A stretch of DNA of 64,000 bases. It comes from Octopus vulgaris. Its lineage: Eukaryota. Position numbers and translations under genes: made by a program. The notes under the pieces are model-generated. The model was given only the letters and a program-made list of their open reading frames with translations, was not told the origin of the DNA and did not search any database. This document shows positions 1,790 to 55,944 of this stretch, in pieces. Position 1 is the stretch's first letter, and each line of letters opens with the position of its first letter. The DNA is taken from assembly GCA_951406725.2 (NCBI GenBank), contig OX597825.1, positions 46,004,001 through 46,068,000 of the forward strand, given 5' to 3'.

Positions 1790-2255
1790 TAATAAAAAGT
1801 AACAACAAAAGAATGAGACCTTGATATTTGATAAATAGAGGATTATTTATATATGTTATAATTTAGAACAAACAGTAAGTTCAGTTCTATATTTAAGAGA
1901 TGAGGAATTATGTACATTATTTACATTCGACGGATATTTGTCCTCATCTTACCCACAGGCATATGGCATTGTGGTTAAAAGCATGGGCTACTAACATCAA
2001 GATTACGAGTTTGATTCCAAGCAGTGACCTGAACAACAACAACAACAACAACAACAACAATAATAATAATAATAATAATAACAGCAGCAACAACAACAAC
2101 AACATCAAAAAACACTTTAGGAATGAGAGCTCAGGTTTGAAGATTTCCCCAAGATACCTGAAGAAGGCTGGAGGGTATATCAGCCGAAACATTGTGTTAA
2201 CAACAAACAAGATGAGGACAAATATCCGTTGAATGTAAATAATGTAAATAAGAAA
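1790..2255 (+). mobile_element. Non-autonomous PLE-derived element with inverted repeats and HHR-like motif
   Basis: 38-bp inverted repeat (1913-1950 vs 2209-2246) encloses a tRNA-like head, (AAC/AAT)n and CTGAAGA-a-ggctg...cagcc-GAAAC at ~2158-2190. Confidence 0.55.
2152..2197 (+). ncRNA. Degenerate minimal hammerhead ribozyme (C3-G8 core)
   Basis: CTGAAGA + a + stem II ggctg/cagcc + GAAAC; stems I and III are imperfect. Confidence 0.45.
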
Positions 2256-14371: not shown

Positions 14372-15212
14372 TCGCTAAAGAGACTACTAACAAATGCAAA
14401 GCTTTACAAAACAACCACAAAACCAACGGTTGAAAAATGTGGGCGCCCGAACTGTGGAACCTGCCCCCACCTGCTTGAAGGCTCGGATTTCCTTTTCAAA
14501 CAAGGACAGAGGTTCACAATTAAAACTAGTTTCACCTGTGCCTCTGAGAACCTAATTTATGTAATAACCTGCTCAGGTTGCAGTCATCAGTACATTGGAC
14601 AAACGAGTTTAACTTTGAGGAAGAGAATCACTCTGCATAAGGAGCAAATCCGTTTCCTGCAATACAGACAAATTCCTCTTAGTGAACACATAGAAAAATG
14701 TGCAGGTAACATCAAACCAAATTTTACAGTCTTCCCTTTCTACCAGTGCAAAGACACAATCTCTCAACTAGAATGCTTAAATAAAGAAACTTTTTTCATT
14801 GAAAAATACAAAACGCGTCTTAATAAGCACGCATAACCAACTTTTATATTTTTATATTTTTACATATTACATCACTGTACATAAATCCCCTACTAAACAA
14901 GGCCCTCTTTTTTTAAACCTGTCTCCTTTCTGTACACATATTTATTCCCCACCCAAAACCTAAACAGTTATCTCCCTTACACACAACAATAAAAATAATA
15001 ACAACCAATTACCTCCCATTACTTGTCAACTTGTAAAATCATTCACTTGTGAATTTCATTACAAACAACATGGACCGAATTTCTTCTTAAGAAAGAATAT
15101 ATTTTCATATAAATTAATCATTATATCATGAATAGCGATCGCGAAACCGGTCGATACATTAAAAATTATACTATAACCATGTAAGTGTGCGTATTTTCCT
15201 TTTTTAATTTCT
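14372..15212 (+). mobile_element. Neptune-like PLE 3' fragment (GIY-YIG endonuclease + pLTR)
   Basis: KCGRPNCGTC linker finger, NLIYVITCSGC...YIGQT, LHKEQI, EHIEKC; stop at 14836; HHR-like motif at 15124; flanked by (TA)n. Confidence 0.85.
15124..15156 (+). ncRNA. Minimal hammerhead ribozyme with A3-U8 core variant
   Basis: tatc-ATGAATA-gcgatcgc-GAAA-ccgg-TC-gata. Stem I is tatc/gata; stems II and III are palindromic. Confidence 0.6.
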
Positions 15213-21876: not shown

Positions 21877-21915
21877 GAGAAATTTGAAAAGAAAATACGA
21901 AACCGGTTATTTCTC
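21877..21915 (+). ncRNA. Minimal hammerhead ribozyme with U3-A8 core variant
   Basis: gagaaat-TTGAAAA-g aaaata c-GAAA-ccgg-TT-atttctc, with a perfect 7-bp stem I. The mirror copy at 17955-17993 has GAAA>AAAA. Confidence 0.55.
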
Positions 21916-28507: not shown

Positions 28508-28607
28508 NNNNNNNNNNNNNNNNNNNNNNNNNNNNNNNNNNNNNNNNNNNNNNNNNNNNNNNNNNNNNNNNNNNNNNNNNNNNNNNNNNNNNNNNNNNNN
28601 NNNNNNN
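28508..28607. other. Assembly gap (100 N)
   Basis: Run of N. Confidence 1.
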
Positions 28608-28943
28608 AGTTTCCCTAAGGATCCTTTGTGGCAGTCTACAGCATGTTGGTAGAAGATGGAGTTTGGCTTCCTTTCAATGTAGTTGTCCAGGTGTTCTTTG
28701 AACCTATCATTGATGCTTCTAGAAGTCTCACCTATGTATGACTCTGGGTTAGTCGCGCAAGCTCCCTCCTGGCACTTAATCTGGTATACAGTGCCCTTGG
28801 TTTTGCAATTTACATGTGGATTTGTGAACATACTGCACAATTACTTTGACAGGTGATTCTATCAAATGGATATGATCTGCATAATGCCGATTTGATAGTC
28901 CTACCTGTCTTTTCTACAACTTTAATTTTTTAGGCCAGTAATG
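28608..28943 (-). mobile_element. Near-identical duplicate of Naiad-like PLE segment 37350-37683
   Basis: Matches 37350-37683 apart from a 1-nt indel; encodes VYQIKC...YIGETSR. Confidence 0.85.
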
Positions 28944-29641
28944 GCTGTAGTAGTTAATTGAGGATAGTTAATTGAGGCATTAAAATGATGATGATGATAT
29001 TTATATATAAATATATGAGTGTGTGTCTATATATGTATATGTTTCTGCTCTCATTCTTGATCACTCTCTTTCTCTTGCTTTTTGCTTCAGGCTAGGTAAC
29101 CAAACATCTCCTTTACACCCCCTGTACCTCTCTCTCTCTCTTGCCGGGTAACCATGTACCTCCTCTATAGCAAGACACCTGTTTCTGCCTCTATTTCTGT
29201 CACACTCTAATCTTTCATCATCTGATACAAGATCCCCCCCTCCTCTCAAAATTCCTTGTCTTGCAAGTTACTTGGTGACCCTGCAGGTGCTGGTGCTGTG
29301 TAAAAAGCATTCAGTCTATATTGTTAAGTGGTTCGCATTTTGAAGGGCATCCAGCTGTAAAAATCATGCCAAAACTGACTAGCTCTAACCTCTCATTACC
29401 TGACACAAAGCCACCTCCTTCGCTACTACTCCCCATATCAGTTGAAGGATTTTGAGTTGCAAGTTAATATATATATATATAAAATATTAGAAAAAAACAC
29501 CTTTTATCAATTCAAAATGAATAATTAAATTACACCATCTAGAAAATTACATATAATAGAAAAGTTAAAATTAAAATAACAATTAAAAAGTAAAGATTAA
29601 GTAAATTACAAAAATAATGTAATGTATATAATAGGTAGAAA

Positions 29642-29728
29642 AACGACATGTGTTTCGCTTCTATATTTAAGAAATGATTATAGTAGTAGAGAAATCACTT
29701 GCATATAAATATAGTCGCTCATCAGGTT
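29642..29728 (-). ncRNA. Hammerhead ribozyme, intact core, extended stem II
   Basis: Reverse complement: aac-CTGATGA-gc ga ctatattta...taaatatag aa gc-GAAA-cacatg-TC-gtt. Confidence 0.7.
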
Positions 29729-29772
29729 AAAAATATAATAGAACAATTAATTAATAAATATACTTTGATATA

Positions 29773-31461
29773 TTGAAGGATATTCCTATACCATCTAGAA
29801 AAGAATATCTTTTAAAACTTATTAATAATATTAAGGATTTTATTAATAGAATTAAACGGAAAGCCTACTATTTTAATAATAACAACATTAATGATGTAGA
29901 TATTATAATTTTATTAATTCTAAATTTAAATCTAGAAAAGAACCCCCATATAATAGAGAAATACAGATTTTAGAGGATAATATTTGGAAGGTAGTGAAAA
30001 ATATTAAATTTCATAAATACCCTAATAGACATAACGAATATTTAAGAAATTTAGCTATTAAAATTAAAGAAATGCGAAATATGGAAGGTATCATAGTAGA
30101 ATCAGATAAAACCAAGAACCTATACGAATTAGATATTAGATTATATGATTTCCTTTTAAATAAAGAAATTAATAAAAAATATAAAATTGTTCCAGAAAAT
30201 ACACTATATAAATAAAGTCTCTAAATTAATAATGATGAAATATAATTTGGATAATAAAGCTGAACCTTATGTTCCTATGCACCCTAGAATAACTTTGAAA
30301 GATCATAAAGAAAATTTTTACTCTGACCCTAAGGTTAGATTGATTTGTCCATGTAAATCAGATTTAGGTAAATTAAGTAAAATTATTCTGGATAAATACA
30401 TTTATAGGTTAAATGAATTGAATTACCTTAAACTTTGGAACTGTACTAATGATACTTTAAAATGGTTTCATAATACTAATGATAAAAATAAATCTAAATT
30501 CATTCAAATTGATATAGATAATTATTATTGTTCTATTAATGAGATAGTACTTAATAAAGCCCTTATATTTGCTATGAATAAGGTTGAAATGACTAATGAT
30601 GAAGTTAATGTTATTAAAATGGCTAGGAAATCGTTAATAAGATATAATAATAAATTATGGGCTAGGAAAGATACTAGAAACTTTTTTGATATACCTATGG
30701 GGGCACCAGATTCTGCTCAGGCTACTGATTTAGTAGGTATTTATTTATTATTAGAACTTCAATTAGAAAATTAAAATTTTGATGGTGGTTTATATAGAGA
30801 TGACATTTTATTACTTACCAGGATTGTACAAATAGAAAATTAGAATTATATAAAAAGAAACTTCATAATTTCTTTAAAAGAAATGGTTTAAGTATTACTA
30901 TATATAATGAGAACTATAATGTTAAATATTTAGATGTTAATTTTAATTTAATAATGGGTAAAACCCAACCATTCCATAAAATTAATGAAAACCTTAGATA
31001 TATTAATGCTTGTAGTAATCATCCACCTTCTGTTAAAAAATCGTTGATAAATAATGTAGGTAAAAGAATATCATTACTTTCTTATGATATAGAGATTTTT
31101 AATAAACATGCACCTTATTATAATAAAGCTTTGAATGAGGCTGGATACAATAATAATATTAAATACTTTAACATTTGTAAATGTAATTATAATTTAAAAG
31201 ATAATTATTTTAATGATTTTTATAATGATAAACCTAATTGTCTGTGTTATGATAAATCTTATTTAGGAACTTATCGCCTTAATAATAATATGTATTTTGA
31301 TGATGAAAATCTTAAATTTAATGTTAGAATAAAAAATAAAAAGTATAGTAATAATAATAAAAATAAAAATTAAATTAAATTAAATTCATTTAATGAAGAT
31401 AATAAATTTAATAATATGGTAAATAATTTTAGTAATAATGATGATAGTTATAATAATAATT

Positions 31462-31509
<48 letters not shown>

Positions 31510-32256
31510 TTAATTATAATCATAATATAAAAGATATAAATAAAAATAAAACTTGGTTAGTTATTCCTTTTGGGACTCAGGTTAAAACAAATCTTATAAA
31601 AGAGATTTTACATCATCATTATTGAAATATTTATTAGAGATAATAAAAAATATAATATTTTTTCTAAAGATAATTTGGGTGTTGGATTTTCTACTACAAA
31701 TAATGTTGGTAATATTTCTTCATATAATAGTTTCAAATTAAAGAAATTTTATAAAGATAGATTTAATACTAATTCTAATTATAATAATAAAGACCAAGAG
31801 TTGATTTCTTGTACATGTAGGTATAAGTCTACATGTAAATTGAAAAATTATTGTGATTTAGATAATGTAGTCTATAGATGTAGGGTAACTATAATAGATG
31901 ATAAGAATTTGAATCATCGTAATTTAAATACTATTTATATTGGGTCTACTTCGAATAAAATTAAAAATAGAATTTCCCAACATATGTATTCTTTTAGGAA
32001 TAAAAATCTTATAAACTCAACAGGTCCCAGTAAATATATTTGGGACCTTAAATTTAAATCTATTAAATTAAAATTAAATTGGGATATTATTTGTAGGGCT
32101 AAATCTTATACTATAGGGAGTAATAGTTGTTCTCTTTGTAATAACGAATTTAGGGAGATATTATTTCATAAAAATTGTGCGTTGATAAACTCTTTAGAAG
32201 AACATAAAATTAAATGTAAACATAAATTAAAGTACCTTTATAATAGATTTAAATGA
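29773..32256 (+). pseudogene. PLE reverse transcriptase + GIY-YIG endonuclease, frameshifted
   Basis: KDIPIPS, KVRLICPCKS, FDIPMGAPD, GLYRDD, SNHPPS, CxCx5Cx5C (CTCRYKSTCKLKNYC), VVYRC...IYIG, CSLC, KCKH. Confidence 0.88.
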
Positions 32257-34479
32257 TAAATAAATAATTATATTATTTTTAAATAAATATTATAGTAATA
32301 TAAATTATTTTCAAAATAATATATATGTATTTTATTTGATTACTTATTATTTAGACTTTAAATTTATAGTAAATGTTTTTTAAAATTAAATAATATTTTA
32401 TGTAATTATATATTATATTTAACTTATCTTTAGTATTATTAAACCTTATCTTGTCTTATGTGGCTTATTTATTTATTATAGATATTATCTAATAGTACCA
32501 GAGTTTTTTTACTGTTTTATTACAAATCATATTATATTTTAAAAATAATGATGAATAATATTTGATGGTGAGTTTGAGATGAGTTTTGGGCTTCATCTGT
32601 TAGAGTCTTTAGGAAGGGTTGAATGGTAGGAAATAGTCGGCTGTGAATGAATTTGACATTAGTTTGCAGTTTGTTGTAGATTGGAATTTGTTAATGATGG
32701 TCATAATTTATAAAGATATTAATAATGTTAATTTTTATGTTAATTATTATAATATTAATGATAATAATATTTATAATCGCGTATAGCTTGTTATAGGATC
32801 CGGGTAGTGATGATGAAAAAGTAATACTTTATATACTATTTTTACTATTACTACTTTTATTAACTTTATTTGATTCATGAAGTTTAGATAATTCCCATAT
32901 TTCATTAATAATTTCCTTTAGCCCTTTTCATTAATAGTTATGTTCTATTTTTCCATGTAACGTTTCCACGAGTTTTATTTCTTATAGACGCTAAGTAGTA
33001 TTCTTTACGTTTATAAACTAGTGATTTTCTCTAATTAACTTAACGTTATTATCTCCTTTATTTTGGATTTGTATTTTGGGGGCGGTTAGTGTTTAGCTGG
33101 GATTAATTTTGTTTTTGATATAATAATAGGTGTCTGTTATTTTCATTTGCGTGTCTTTATAGTAGTTTCTCCGTTAGTTGTGGTTTTCTCTAATTTTTTA
33201 GTTCATGAGGCTTTAAGTTTTTTCGTCTTTTTGTATTTTTCATTCATAATAATTTTGCCACATTCATTGACTATTTATTGTATTCCACGCGATAAATTTT
33301 ATAAACGTTTTTCTCGTATTTTTCATTGTTAAATGTTTCGCTACATTCATTAAGGATTTATTCTATTTCTTTGCACTATGCGATAATTTTAGAAACGCTT
33401 TAAAATGTATATCTCTTTTAAAAATCAGTTACTCTTCATTCTTCACTAAAGCTAAGTCTGATTTTATCGTTTCTCTATTTCATTTGATTATTGAACTGTT
33501 GTGTTTTTGAAATTATTATTATTGTTGATATTATTTTTGTTTGATGTAATATTTTTATTTATTTATAGTTTCTTGATAGTATTTTTACGTCCGATGTTTA
33601 ATTGTTATAAAAGATTTTATGTTTTACATATCATTTAATTTGAGAATTTATAATGGTTAGACTTTTTTCTTATAATTAGATAATATTTTCATTAAATAGT
33701 ACTTTTTCTTAAATACACTAGTTTTTATTTTAATATAATGTTTATGTTTAACTTTTTATCGTGTGATATATTAAATCTATAGATTTTATACATGGATATT
33801 AATATAACAAGTTTATATAATGGATTTGAGTGTATTTGTACTTTTTCAAAGTTTTGATTGTATTTTCATGAATGAAATTGATTGAGTTGATTAATTAGAT
33901 GCTTATCATTTTAAAATCTAGATAGATTAATCAGAATCGTTGAACTTAGTAATTTAGTTTGCTTATCAATATTAGTTAGTTCTTGCTATTATTTTGACTT
34001 TGATCGTTTTTATTATTGTTAATGTTATTGACTGGTTTGGTAGAGGACTGGTGATTGTGATTGTACATCTTCATAGTATATTGTTCTTTGGTTTGAATAT
34101 TTTAGCACCTTTCTTTAATTTGGGGTTGATAGATTTCTTACTTTCCATTAACATATTATTCTTGCTATCATATATATATATATATATATGTTTAAAAATT
34201 AAAAAAATTTTTTTAATAATATATTATATTATTTATTGATATATAGGTGGATTATGTATTTGTAATACTAAATTGAAGTTAATATTATTTGATATTTAGT
34301 CTATTTTGTTACGGTTTGTTATATTAAATCTATAGATACTACACATGTATATTTATTATATGGTTAGCTTATGTAAGGAGTTTGTCTATATTTGAAACAT
34401 TTCTTATTTTGATTACAATTTAATGACTTAATTATTGAAGTATTATTTTATTTTTCAATTACGTATATTTAGAATTTTC

Positions 34480-34525
<46 letters not shown>

Positions 34526-34560
34526 GTATATTTATTAATTAATTGTTCTATTATATTTTT

Positions 34561-34647
34561 AACCTGATGAGTGACTATATTTATATGCAAGTGGTTTCTC
34601 TACTACTATAATCATTTTTTAAATATAGCAGCAAAACATATGTCGTT
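34561..34647 (+). ncRNA. Hammerhead copy with GAAA>AAAA mutation (also 34972-35058)
   Basis: aac-CTGATGA...gc-AAAA-catatg-TC-gtt; homologous to 29642-29728. Confidence 0.55.
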
Positions 34648-35308
34648 TTTCTACCTATTATATACATTATATTATTTTTGTAATTTACTTAATCTTTACT
34701 TTTTAATTGTTATTTTAATTTTAACTTTTCTATTATATGTAATTTTCTAGATGGTGTAATTTAATTATTCATTTTGAATTGAAAAAAGTGCTTTTTTCTA
34801 ATATTTTGTATATATATTATATTGTGTGGAATTTGATTTGTGTATTTTATTTAATTATTGAAGTATTATTTTATTTTTCAATTATGTATATTTAGAATTT
34901 TCATATACATATATATATATATATATATATATTAAAGTATATTTATTAATTAATTGTTCTATTATATTTTTAACCTGATGAGTGACTATATTTATATGCA
35001 AGTGGTTTCTCTACTACTATAATCATTTTTTAAATATAGCAGCAAAACATATGTCGTTTTTCTACCTATTATATACATTATATTATTTTTGTAATTTACT
35101 TAATCTTTACTTTTTAATTGTTATTTTAATTTTAACTTTTCTATTATATGTAATTTTCTAGATGGTGTAATTTAATTATTCATTTTGAATTGAAAAAAGT
35201 GCTTTTTTCTAATATTTTGTATATATATTATATTGTGTGGAATTTGATTTAGTATTTCTAAATTGAATTCTTTTTCCTTGTAAGTTTGGATTTTATTCCC
35301 TCAAATAA

Positions 35309-36136: not shown

Positions 36137-36171
<35 letters not shown>

Positions 36172-36250
36172 ATTGCAGCATGGAAGGTGTTTATAAGCCA
36201 TTTAAGAAACACACAAAAGCCGTTCGATTTACTCCAACATTTAAGTTTAA

Positions 36251-36300
36251 TTTGTCAAAATATTTTCGTCGCTAAAATCCGCGACCTGTTCACTGACAAA
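36251..36300 (-). ncRNA. Minimal hammerhead ribozyme with G3-C8 core variant
   Basis: Reverse complement: tttgtca-GTGAACA-g-gtcgc ggatttta gcgac-GAAA-atat-TT-tgacaaa. Perfect 7-bp stem I and 5-bp stem II; a decayed relative lies at 55077-55120. Confidence 0.6.
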
Positions 36301-36339
36301 AATCCATGCTGCATCTGAGAAAGTAACAGTTAGTTCGTC

Positions 36340-36910
36340 ATATATATGTACGTATGTGTGTATGTATGTATACATGTGTGTATGTATGTATGTATGCATG
36401 TACGTACATACGCCTGTGTATGCATTATGTATGTATGTATGTATGTATATATGTATGTGTGTGTATATGCATGCACATACACACTATAAACATAAAGCTA
36501 TAAACCTGTAGCGATGGATAGATGTAGAGTGACCACTCATCACAATAATATCAAATTTCACCACCCCCCCGCCGAAGCCTGGAAGTGATTTACGACCCTT
36601 ACTCCCAAAACTATACCCTAAAACCTATTATCAGATATTTATCTCTATATCACAGAACTTTTGTTTTACTATTGTGCGTATGTATGTATGTATGTGCGTG
36701 TGTATGTACATACGTACGCATGTGCGTATGTATGTATACGCGCACGTATGCATGTGCCCATGTATGTACGTGCGTATGTACGTGTGTATGCCCATACGTA
36801 GGTATGTATGTATGTTTGTACTCATGTGCTACGTATGTATGTGAGTGTCTAGGAGAATGGGAGAATGGGCATGTCTGTGAGAGTGTGTACATGTGTATGT
36901 GTATGTGAAC
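36340..36910. repeat. Degenerate (TATG/TACG/TG)n low-complexity tract
   Basis: Alternating purine-pyrimidine sequence in two blocks. Confidence 0.85.
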
Positions 36911-37201
36911 GTATATCCGTGTACTGGCATGTGTCCGTCCAAGTTGTGTACATGACTGTTACTTTGTTGAAGGTTGTATACATATTCACATATATGTTTG
37001 TATAGACCCACACACATATATATATATGTGTGGGTGTGTGTTTGTTCCTCTCATCACCGTCTAACTGTGAATGGATACAACGCCTAAGTGCAACTGTACG
37101 TATCAAACAACGTACGCTCATACGGTTATATATAACTGCACATACGCATTGCAACCTGTATGTAAGGACTACAAGTAAACGAGAGAGAGAGAGAGGGGTG
37201 G

Positions 37202-37963
37202 TTATAGAATAGTCCTTCTGAATAGGATCTGGATGTTACTCCATTCGGACTTTCGGTTGAGAGTAGGTTTGTATTCTTGTATACAAACAGCTTCTGTGAC
37301 CTGTCTCAACATTGCATCGGTGGGATGTGTTGATAGGATGTTCAACTTAAGTTTCCCTAAGGATCCTTTGTGGCAGTCTACAGCATGTTGGTAGAAGATG
37401 GAGTTTGGCTTCCTTTCAATGTAGTTGTCCAGGTGTTCTTTGAACCTATCATTGATGCTTCTAGAAGTCTCACCTATGTATGACTCTGGGTTAGTCGCGC
37501 AAGCTCCCTCCTGGCACTTAATCTGGTATACAGTGCCCTTGGTTTTGCAATTTACATGTGGATTTGTCGAACATACTGCACAATTACTTTGACAGGTGAT
37601 TCTATCAAATGGATATGATCTGCATAATGCCGATTTGATAGTCCTACCTGTCTTTTCTACAACTTTAATTTTTTAGGCCAGTAGTGCGCAGGATTTTCTT
37701 GAATGCCTTACTTAGCTCGTTCTTAGGTGTGGCATCAACGAACATTACTCTGTGAAATCTCCTGTTATCGTACCAAGTAACGTTTCTCATCCTTTTGTTG
37801 GTGTCCCTCTCTAACCTATTCCAGAACTTGTTGCGGTATAGGGGGCATATACCGTTTTCGTCGTTCCTTGGTACGATAACAGGAGATTTCACGGAGTAAT
37901 GTTCGTTGACGCCACACCTAAGAACGAGCTAAGTAAGGCATTCAAGAAAATCCTGCGCACTAC
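37202..37963 (-). mobile_element. Naiad-like PLE 3' fragment (GIY-YIG) with fold-back at 5' break
   Basis: MFVDATP, IKVVEKTG, CQSNCAVC, VYQIKC, YIGETSR, EH..H...H, RQVTEAV, LNRKSEW. 97-bp inverted repeat at 37681-37777 / 37867-37963. Confidence 0.75.
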
Positions 37964-54735: not shown

Positions 54736-55944
54736 ACGCACAGGTTATACTTATTTCTATAACATCATTCTCTATTAGTAAATTTCGTTTCTTGTAACAA
54801 TTTAAAGGAATGTTAAAGACAATTTATTTTAATAACATGAACTGTCTGGATAAAGAATCAAATAAAAGAAAATGAAAAACAGTGGAAGGTTTTGTAATTA
54901 GGAGCAGAGTAAGGTTGAATATCTAAAAGAATTTGCAACATGTAAGATGTTTGTAAGCAATTCCATAACAACAAAAACCGTTCCTTTCACTGGAACATTT
55001 AAATTTCGTTTGTGTCTAAATATTTTCATTCTTTGAAACCACGGAAAAACCCTGACAAAAATTTGTGCTACATCTGTTTTGTCAGTGAACAAGTCTCGGT
55101 TTCAAAGCGACAAAAATATTGAGATTGAAATGAGATTTAAATCTTGGAGTGAAACCAAATTTGTGTGTGTGTGTGTGCATATGTTCTTGAGTGGTATACA
55201 AACATCTACGCTGCAATTGTTTTTGTTAATACCATTATGTAGAAGACAGAATCGAAAAAATTTTGCGCGCAAATTTTTGTTTTCATCTTTGTTTATAGCA
55301 TAGATAATTTTTTCTGAAATGCCACCTTTGGCCTGCAGGACGCATTGGTTGGCCTGAGGCAATAGTTGAAAACACTTACTGGCAAACAGGGGCGGAGGAC
55401 CAGGAGAATTCACACGATCCAATTTTTACCCTATAGAAAATGGATATTCTTTCTAACCACAAGGTTCCAGGTACAGTCCCACTGCATGGCACCTTGGGGA
55501 AACACTGGAGTTTAAAGGTCAAGGTCTGATGATGTTAACTTTCCAAGCGCGCATTTTTTTCCACATACATTTAAAGCAAGTTGTTTTATACCTATTACAC
55601 TAAATTTTAATTATTTTTTTGCTCAGGTCAAATGCTAGAGTTTAAAGATCATGGTCTGACGATGTGAATTTTCCGAGTCCTCTCCCCCACCCACCGTTCA
55701 CAAGTGCGCATTTTTTTAAATATTTGTTTACAGCAAGTTGTTTTACACCTATTACACTATTTTCTTTTTTGGCTGTGGTGAGATGACTCGCAACATTCAT
55801 GATGTGAACTTTCCAAGTCCTTTCCCCCACCTCCCATTAGCGAGCGCACATTTTTTTCCATATTCATTTACTACATGTTGTTGTACACCTATTACACTGA
55901 TTAAAAAATTTTTATTTGCTCAGGTCAAGCACTTTAGTTTAACA

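Follow-up and report, generated by a model that had tools for sequence, protein, structure and literature searches.

Can the 3-8 base pair of the hammerhead ribozyme be inverted in nature and persist? This pair was deduced from the crystal structure and proved with engineered swaps and, to our knowledge, the only natural forms described were C-G and, rarely, U-A. The question is raised by the 64,000-nucleotide stretch of Octopus vulgaris DNA analysed here (the window), which holds, on its minus strand at 36251..36300, what a sequence-only reading had described as a hammerhead variant with an inverted G3-C8 pair. We therefore asked whether the motif is a hammerhead, which element carries it, how firmly G3-C8 is established and whether the motif is likely to cut.

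Read on the minus strand, the motif has the layout of a minimal type I hammerhead. A 7-bp stem I (36300-36294 / 36257-36251) encloses core positions 3-9, GTGAACA (36293-36287, with G3 at 36293 and C8 at 36288), an extra G after A9 (36286), a 5-bp stem II (36285-36281 / 36272-36268), GAA (36267-36265), the AATATT palindrome of stem III (36264-36259) and U17 (36258), directly 3’ of which the cut is predicted. All of these features, with the UUU site, lie where they had been reported; the extra G, which had been remarked upon, is the normal state of hammerheads in Penelope-like elements (PLEs) (PMC4209133). The window motif forms a three-way junction, with stems I and II and an A15.1-U16.1 pair, and sequence comparison reveals compensatory changes between lineages in the junction stems. 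U4, G5, A6, A9, G12, A13, A14 and H17 are all kept, both in the window copy and in the consensus of lineages A and C described below. The motif departs from the literal hammerhead consensus, C3 and G8, in reading G3 and C8, and the two positions form a Watson-Crick pair, G-C in the window and C-G in sister lineages. A descriptor allowing any Watson-Crick 3-8 pair identified one site in the 64-kb window and none after shuffling the window 60 times, whether the stem lengths were strict or loose; an Rfam scan of the window returned no hammerhead family among 104 matches at E<=10. The 50-mer folds with a z of -3.40 and its reverse complement with a z of -3.41. Since both fold equally well, folding cannot fix the strand, which comes instead from the polarity and context of the surrounding element. 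We are confident in identifying the motif as a homologue of PLE hammerheads with a fixed 3-8 swap.

That element is a Penelope-type retrotransposon. The motif lies inside its 3’ UTR, or pLTR (36202..37201, minus), a segment rich in (TACA)n-like repeats which is common to other copies and is found in tandem in one of them, L333. Upstream on the same strand is the end of a 5’-truncated ORF (37202..37963), delineated by Pfam and by copy comparison. It contains a CX3CX2C linker and a GIY-YIG endonuclease at 37202-37672 (Pfam PF01541, E 1.8e-5, in a frame ending about 900 nt upstream of the motif), is broken upstream and includes a 5’ inversion at 37862-37963. Downstream of the motif, a copy of the ORF start (36171..36201, minus; ATG at 36201-36199) enters the element’s short 3’ end and then (TA)n, as delimited from the two 3’ ends of the family and from the full-length copies L332 and L333, which read on from the ATG; the latter is 56 nt downstream of the predicted cut. 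A branch point (36334-36329) and a 3’ splice site AG (36316-36315, minus) of a pLTR intron are predicted 15 nt before stem I, from the sequence and by analogy with D. virilis Penelope, where an intron ending at the hammerhead has been described (PMC4209133). The motif would accordingly lie within the 5’ leader, directly after the predicted 3’ splice site.

Copies of the family stop at two discrete 3’ ends about 58 nt apart, followed by (TA)n, while their 5’ ends are variably truncated; a 3’ tail and (TA)n ending are a signature of PLEs (PMC11167929, PMC8557442). Few copies extend into the RT (92 first-look candidates). L333 is full length: an inverted copy comes first, then a motif-bearing pLTR, the ORF and another motif-bearing pLTR, the two direct motif copies being 4,261 nt apart. 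In another copy, L331, the frame runs for 1,008 codons with one stop and includes RT motifs DKSG and YVDD and the CX3CX2C linker. Atlas neighbours of the element protein are RT and GIY-YIG proteins; a Pfam search of the element’s long frames did not flag an RT domain, and a PDB search with the element ORF gave no match. A single frame with RT and C-terminal GIY-YIG is the arrangement of endonuclease-bearing PLEs, and tandem pLTRs, 5’ truncation and inversion and a 3’ tail are features of PLEs generally. With the Neptune and Nematis clades (PMC8557442), the element shares the C-terminal GIY-YIG, the CX2-5CxxC linker before the endonuclease, (TA)n targets, partial tandems, 5’ inversions and a tail, although the tail here is about 58 nt as against the 30-40 bp quoted and our clade placement is by motifs. 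We thus read it as an autonomous and probably active Neptune/Nematis-like PLE. The sequence-only reading had seen a non-coding repeat, sense to a host gene, and had sought an autonomous PLE partner. These points need revision: the repeat is the pLTR end of a protein-coding retrotransposon, and no partner is required because the autonomous element is the very one whose pLTR holds the motif. For a host gene no confirmation was obtained, no Pfam match of the 20 candidate exons rising above the curated cut-off; the motif is equally frequent on both strands, and host-gene orientation is irrelevant to it. A second, identical piece of the same endonuclease frame is present in the window at 28607-28929 (minus), beside a 100-N gap (28508-28607), and may be an assembly duplicate.

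How firmly is G3-C8 established? The 2.8-Gb genome was searched with a G3-C8 pattern including the start and end of stem II, and 7,082 matches were obtained against 9 in the control, split 3,600 / 3,482 between strands. This copy count, which had been called for, bears out the earlier claim that a natural repeat family has an inverted 3-8 pair as its fixed state: the swap is found in two lineages, A and C, with sisters that are C3-G8. Several loop II types occur among the 100 matches listed of the 7,082, all of them G3-C8 by construction. With a slightly looser pattern, G3 followed by another base at 8 gave 639 matches (146 in the control); by hand count, 69 of the 100 listed belong to lineage A, comprising 31 T8, 25 G8 and 13 A8. 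The 3-8 pair is broken in roughly 6% of lineage A, close to the 4% found at other C:G sites in sampled copies. Contigs from four runs, with four organism codes, cover the stretch, and none of those listed differs at position 3 or 8, which speaks to presence only.

Among the broken copies of lineage A, G8 is over-represented (22 of 64 after removal of duplicates, as against 15% expected, p 1e-4). The G3-G8 state makes up about 2% of lineage A, and its excess is unexplained. Among the matches listed, only older loop types show it, and the youngest has no G8. One insertion, L230, has G8 in both of its copies, and sources with G3-G8 may therefore have transposed. By eye, no diagnostic letters are common to the G3-G8 copies, and an ancestral G-G subfamily is unsupported.

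When the base at position 3 was anything other than G, the same pattern returned 7,230 matches (781 in the control), nearly all from sister lineages with C3-G8. These lineages, B1-B3, have C3-G8 in the same frame as lineage A; B1 and B3 read CTGAAGAG where lineage A reads GTGAACAG. B3 has inner stem I and U17 in common with A, and is C at position 3 in 23 of 32 rows (T in 8) and G at position 8 in 28 of 32. In a hand-picked alignment of 17 copies, the 3-8 pair is C-G in nine and G-C in eight, i.e. paired in 17/17, and one stem II pair goes from G-C to A-U. In a tree built from 29 3’ ends, A+C and B separate with 100/100 support. Because of this split, the swap on the A+C branch counts as one event, C3-G8 being assumed ancestral from the wider literature, and copy numbers are therefore not independent evidence.

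Lineage C allows the swapped core to be followed over time. It is old, with copies about 15% from their own consensus, and has G3 in 29 of 39 and C8 in 20 of 39 aligned rows, the remainder being mostly transitions or rows short of the core. A and C differ at N7 and at five of seven loop II positions. The palindrome has undergone a symmetric 2-nt indel, from six to four letters in C, and is still a palindrome; in stem I, one T-A pair has changed to G-C and the next outer pair is lost. Stem covariation across copies, the lack of which had been named among the refuting conditions, is thus present, with pairs of both stem II and stem I changed on both sides. Between the consensus sequences of this one lineage pair, none of 33 constrained bases has changed, compared with 8 of 57 in the non-coding flanks, a difference of modest strength (Fisher, p 0.025 without outer stem I positions, p 0.012 with them). 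Such a pattern is what would be expected of a hammerhead under selection.

Would such a hammerhead cut? In the hammerhead mechanism, G12 is the base and the 2’-OH at position 8 the acid (PMC6155905), and the active fold contains the 3-8 pair (PMC3884650). Because it is the 2’-OH that acts and the 3-8 pair that holds the base, the base at 8 can change if position 3 follows. Engineered C3G/G8C gave partial rescue of cleavage in a PLE hammerhead that needs PLE protein (PMC11167929), and was the only rescuing double change in the core region of a mutational scan (PMC9901934). Even when the pair is C3-G8, the minimal hammerheads of PLEs are poor at cleaving in vitro (PMC4209133). We consider that the G3-C8 hammerhead probably still self-cleaves; cleavage is likely to be slow, and would probably take place as a dimer or with the help of the element’s own protein. 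A transcript spanning both pLTRs would bring two motifs together. We infer that their AATATT palindromes would pair to form the dimer, that each motif would be cut after U17, releasing a unit RNA with its 5’ end 56 nt upstream of the ORF, and that the role is one of processing, whereby element RNA would be cut out of longer transcripts, with selection acting on that role. Taken as a whole, this is the explanation that we favour, with some reservation. Against retained cleavage stand the predicted folds, together with the spread of A9C copies (below) and the G3-G8 excess. In the monomer, the folding model pairs G3 with U17 and so hides the cut site. The drawn active dimer is not the lowest fold either, at -27.2 kcal/mol compared with -31.3 for the lowest two-strand fold and about -29.4 for two monomers, in models that omit tertiary contacts.

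The same observations feed a different account, which we judge unlikely though deserving of weight: that the motif is a hammerhead by descent which no longer cuts, its fold being kept as a structural or protein-binding RNA element of the pLTR or simply carried along, with G3-C8 there for folding or by drift. It gains from the damaged cores that have spread. The youngest B2 subfamily combines A9C with a stem I mismatch and is the commonest in the non-G3 list, making up about half of the 100 matches listed; the hammerhead of this successful sister lineage is probably dead, judging by its core, and the abundance of the subfamily implies that a sound hammerhead is not needed for spread. It gains also from the G3-G8 copies and from the relative at 55077, which belongs to a decayed, non-autonomous derivative in which two pLTR ends are joined head to head (54933..55240). 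The sequence-only reading had cited this relative as evidence that the variant is not private to one copy. It does keep GTGAACA, and with it the G3-C8 letters, but has A for G12, no 3’ strand of stem I and no hammerhead fold (folding z -0.11), so that it attests shared descent only. The derivative spread with A for G12 in 19 of 26 copies and stem I absent in 26 of 26; with stem I gone, and usually G12 too, we rejected it as support for function. In published work, hammerhead mutants were without effect on insertion in vitro, making insertion independent of cleavage there (PMC11167929), and Naiad PLEs thrive without canonical hammerheads (PMC8557442). What drift fails to account for is the pairing itself: a Watson-Crick pair is predicted in about a quarter of doubly changed cores, whereas the G3-C8, U3-A8 and A3-U8 lineages all pair. 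Loss of cutting also sits poorly with the retention of G12, A13, A14, A9, G5 and H17 in A and C while the free position N7 changed, and with the presence of the 3-8 pair in the active conformation (PMC3884650), so that its retention points to catalysis. As to the extent of these families, the 54933-55240 derivative is MITE-like, formed from two inverted pLTR ends, with 1,607 first-look candidates, and the young A9C, stem-I-mismatch sister lineage (L040:5773, minus, and L081-L100) has thousands of copies.

It is very improbable that G3 and C8 are complementary only as a by-product of an overlapping signal that fixed them, whether a coding sequence, a splice acceptor with its last base at G3 or a splice donor beyond the extra G. 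A pyrimidine run followed by CAG does end at G3, and CAG/GT follows as C8-A9-G, but a better acceptor, complete with branch point, is available 22 nt upstream, lineage C keeps G3-C8 though its pyrimidine run is broken, and U3-A8 and A3-U8 would be left unexplained. No frame through the core stays open beyond 25 codons, and the ATG of the element ORF comes 56 nt after the cut site, on which ground coding overlap through the core was rejected. Finally, the refuting alternative named at the outset, in which this hairpin would form the end of a DNA transposon, or likewise of a MITE, has next to nothing left to recommend it. An 11-nt inverted repeat flanks the window copy (36303-36313 / 36174-36184) and head-to-head copies are common, but the two arms of the repeat do not match perfectly in other copies, and a head-to-head arrangement is what the known PLE 5’ inversion produces (PMC8557442). 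The 5’ ends are variably truncated, and the motif is situated inside the element, downstream of the RT / GIY-YIG frame and at 80-140 nt from a polar 3’ end; polar 3’ ends and full-length RT / GIY-YIG copies refute this alternative. The 11-nt repeat might form a long-range helix that joins the leader sequence preceding stem I to the element’s short 3’ end, itself a likely start of reverse transcription; this helix is perfect in the window copy, has 8 of 10 pairs in other copies and is partly retained in lineage C.

G3-C8 is not the only unusual 3-8 pair in this genome. The window contains two Poseidon-type PLE ends on the plus strand, one with an A3-U8 core (at 15128) and a stem II of 2-3 bp (15124-15156), the other with a U3-A8 core (at 21884) and almost no stem II (21877-21915). 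Among about 1,300 candidate copies of the first, A3-U8 is the family state, with compensatory stem I variation; U3-A8 is that of the second, whose relatives include a U3-G8 subfamily lacking one stem I base. This Poseidon-type group is unrelated to the element described above, and a pattern for it, left free at 3 and 8, gave 4,539 genome matches (13 in the control). By hand count, the 100 listed comprise 59 U3-A8, 31 A3-U8, 1 G3-C8, 5 U-G and 4 mismatches, numbers which, the copies being related, do not amount to a probability. Activity is less sure for this group, given its very short stems II. A second G3-C8 motif, L497 (G000:C1:11559080-11559105, minus), has unrelated stems, with a 7-bp stem I, an ACCGGT palindrome and A17, and is followed by a short tail and (TA)n; it may represent a second origin of G3-C8. 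One copy is known, none other having been found in the 1.6 Mb of genome DNA compared. Thus, all four Watson-Crick 3-8 pairs occur in one genome. At position 17, the G3 lineages have U or A and in no case C. G3-C8 performs less well with C17 than with G17 according to an unpublished remark (PMC3884650). The absence of C17, in two events, hints that a G3-C17 trap would be avoided. In a single head-to-head insertion, L491 (G000:C1:7828096-7828240), one copy has U3-A8 and the other A3-U8 with the same stem II, a swap caught inside one family.

The motif resembles the minimal type I hammerheads of metazoan PLEs (Cervera and de la Pena 2014, PMC4209133) in its location in the pLTR, its short palindromic stem III, the extra base between 9 and 10.1, G10.1-C11.1, inverted neighbour copies and thousands of truncated copies. 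It differs in its fixed G3-C8, as the consensus there is CUGANGAH and the sole 3-8 covariation U3-A8 (Schistosoma); the part of the Figure S3 alignment examined has no row with G3 or A3. Natural 3-8 covariation was likewise found among the core variants of Perreault et al. 2011 (PMC3088659), but as U3-A8 only, in rare single examples, whereas G3-C8 and A3-U8 are family states here, in thousands of copies; natural U3-A8 is thus already published. The core pair is identical to that of engineered C3G/G8C, partially rescued in the Anolis Poseidon hammerhead (PMC11167929) and the scan (PMC9901934), but those were made in the laboratory on a C3-G8 background, and the pair here is natural, with U17 instead of C17. 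We found no natural G3-C8 or A3-U8 in the literature covered, with Lunse 2017, the largest survey of PLE hammerhead variants, outside that scope and absence from print unproved; the available text of 10.64898/2026.07.22.740005, PMC6765202, PMC13282606 and PMC2920678 does not contain the G3-C8 variant. A metagenome pattern scan for G3-C8 gave at least 119 matches; among those listed, 49 have a 5-bp stem II and a handful weak stems I and III, none convincing.

We tentatively suggest that the 3-8 pair is freely exchangeable in PLE hammerheads: all four pairs would occur in working ribozymes, G3-C8 would have arisen at least twice, and the valley of inactive single changes would have been crossed because transposition tolerates a dead ribozyme for a while. 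If so, thousands of animal hammerheads per genome escape searches with CUGANGA fixed, and swapped cores may be concealed in some of the PLE clades regarded as lacking ribozymes. G-C in over 7,000 copies, beside C-G sisters and a U-A/A-U group, supplies the missing natural covariation, and B3 and A offer matched natural pairs for kinetics. Rfam and CUGANGA descriptors miss these motifs, so that both the numbers of hammerheads and the PLE clades scored as having ‘no ribozyme’ should be reassessed with a pair-based descriptor. On what PLE hammerheads are for, these data cut both ways, the 3-8 pair being kept as if catalysis mattered, yet damaged cores having spread. The window also holds canonical cores: a very AT-rich PLE (29490-35210, 20% GC), with inverted and tandem 300-nt repeats, has a C3-G8 core with a long stem II at 34564 (plus), and another short repeat carries a canonical C3-G8 minimal hammerhead at 2153-2200 (plus).
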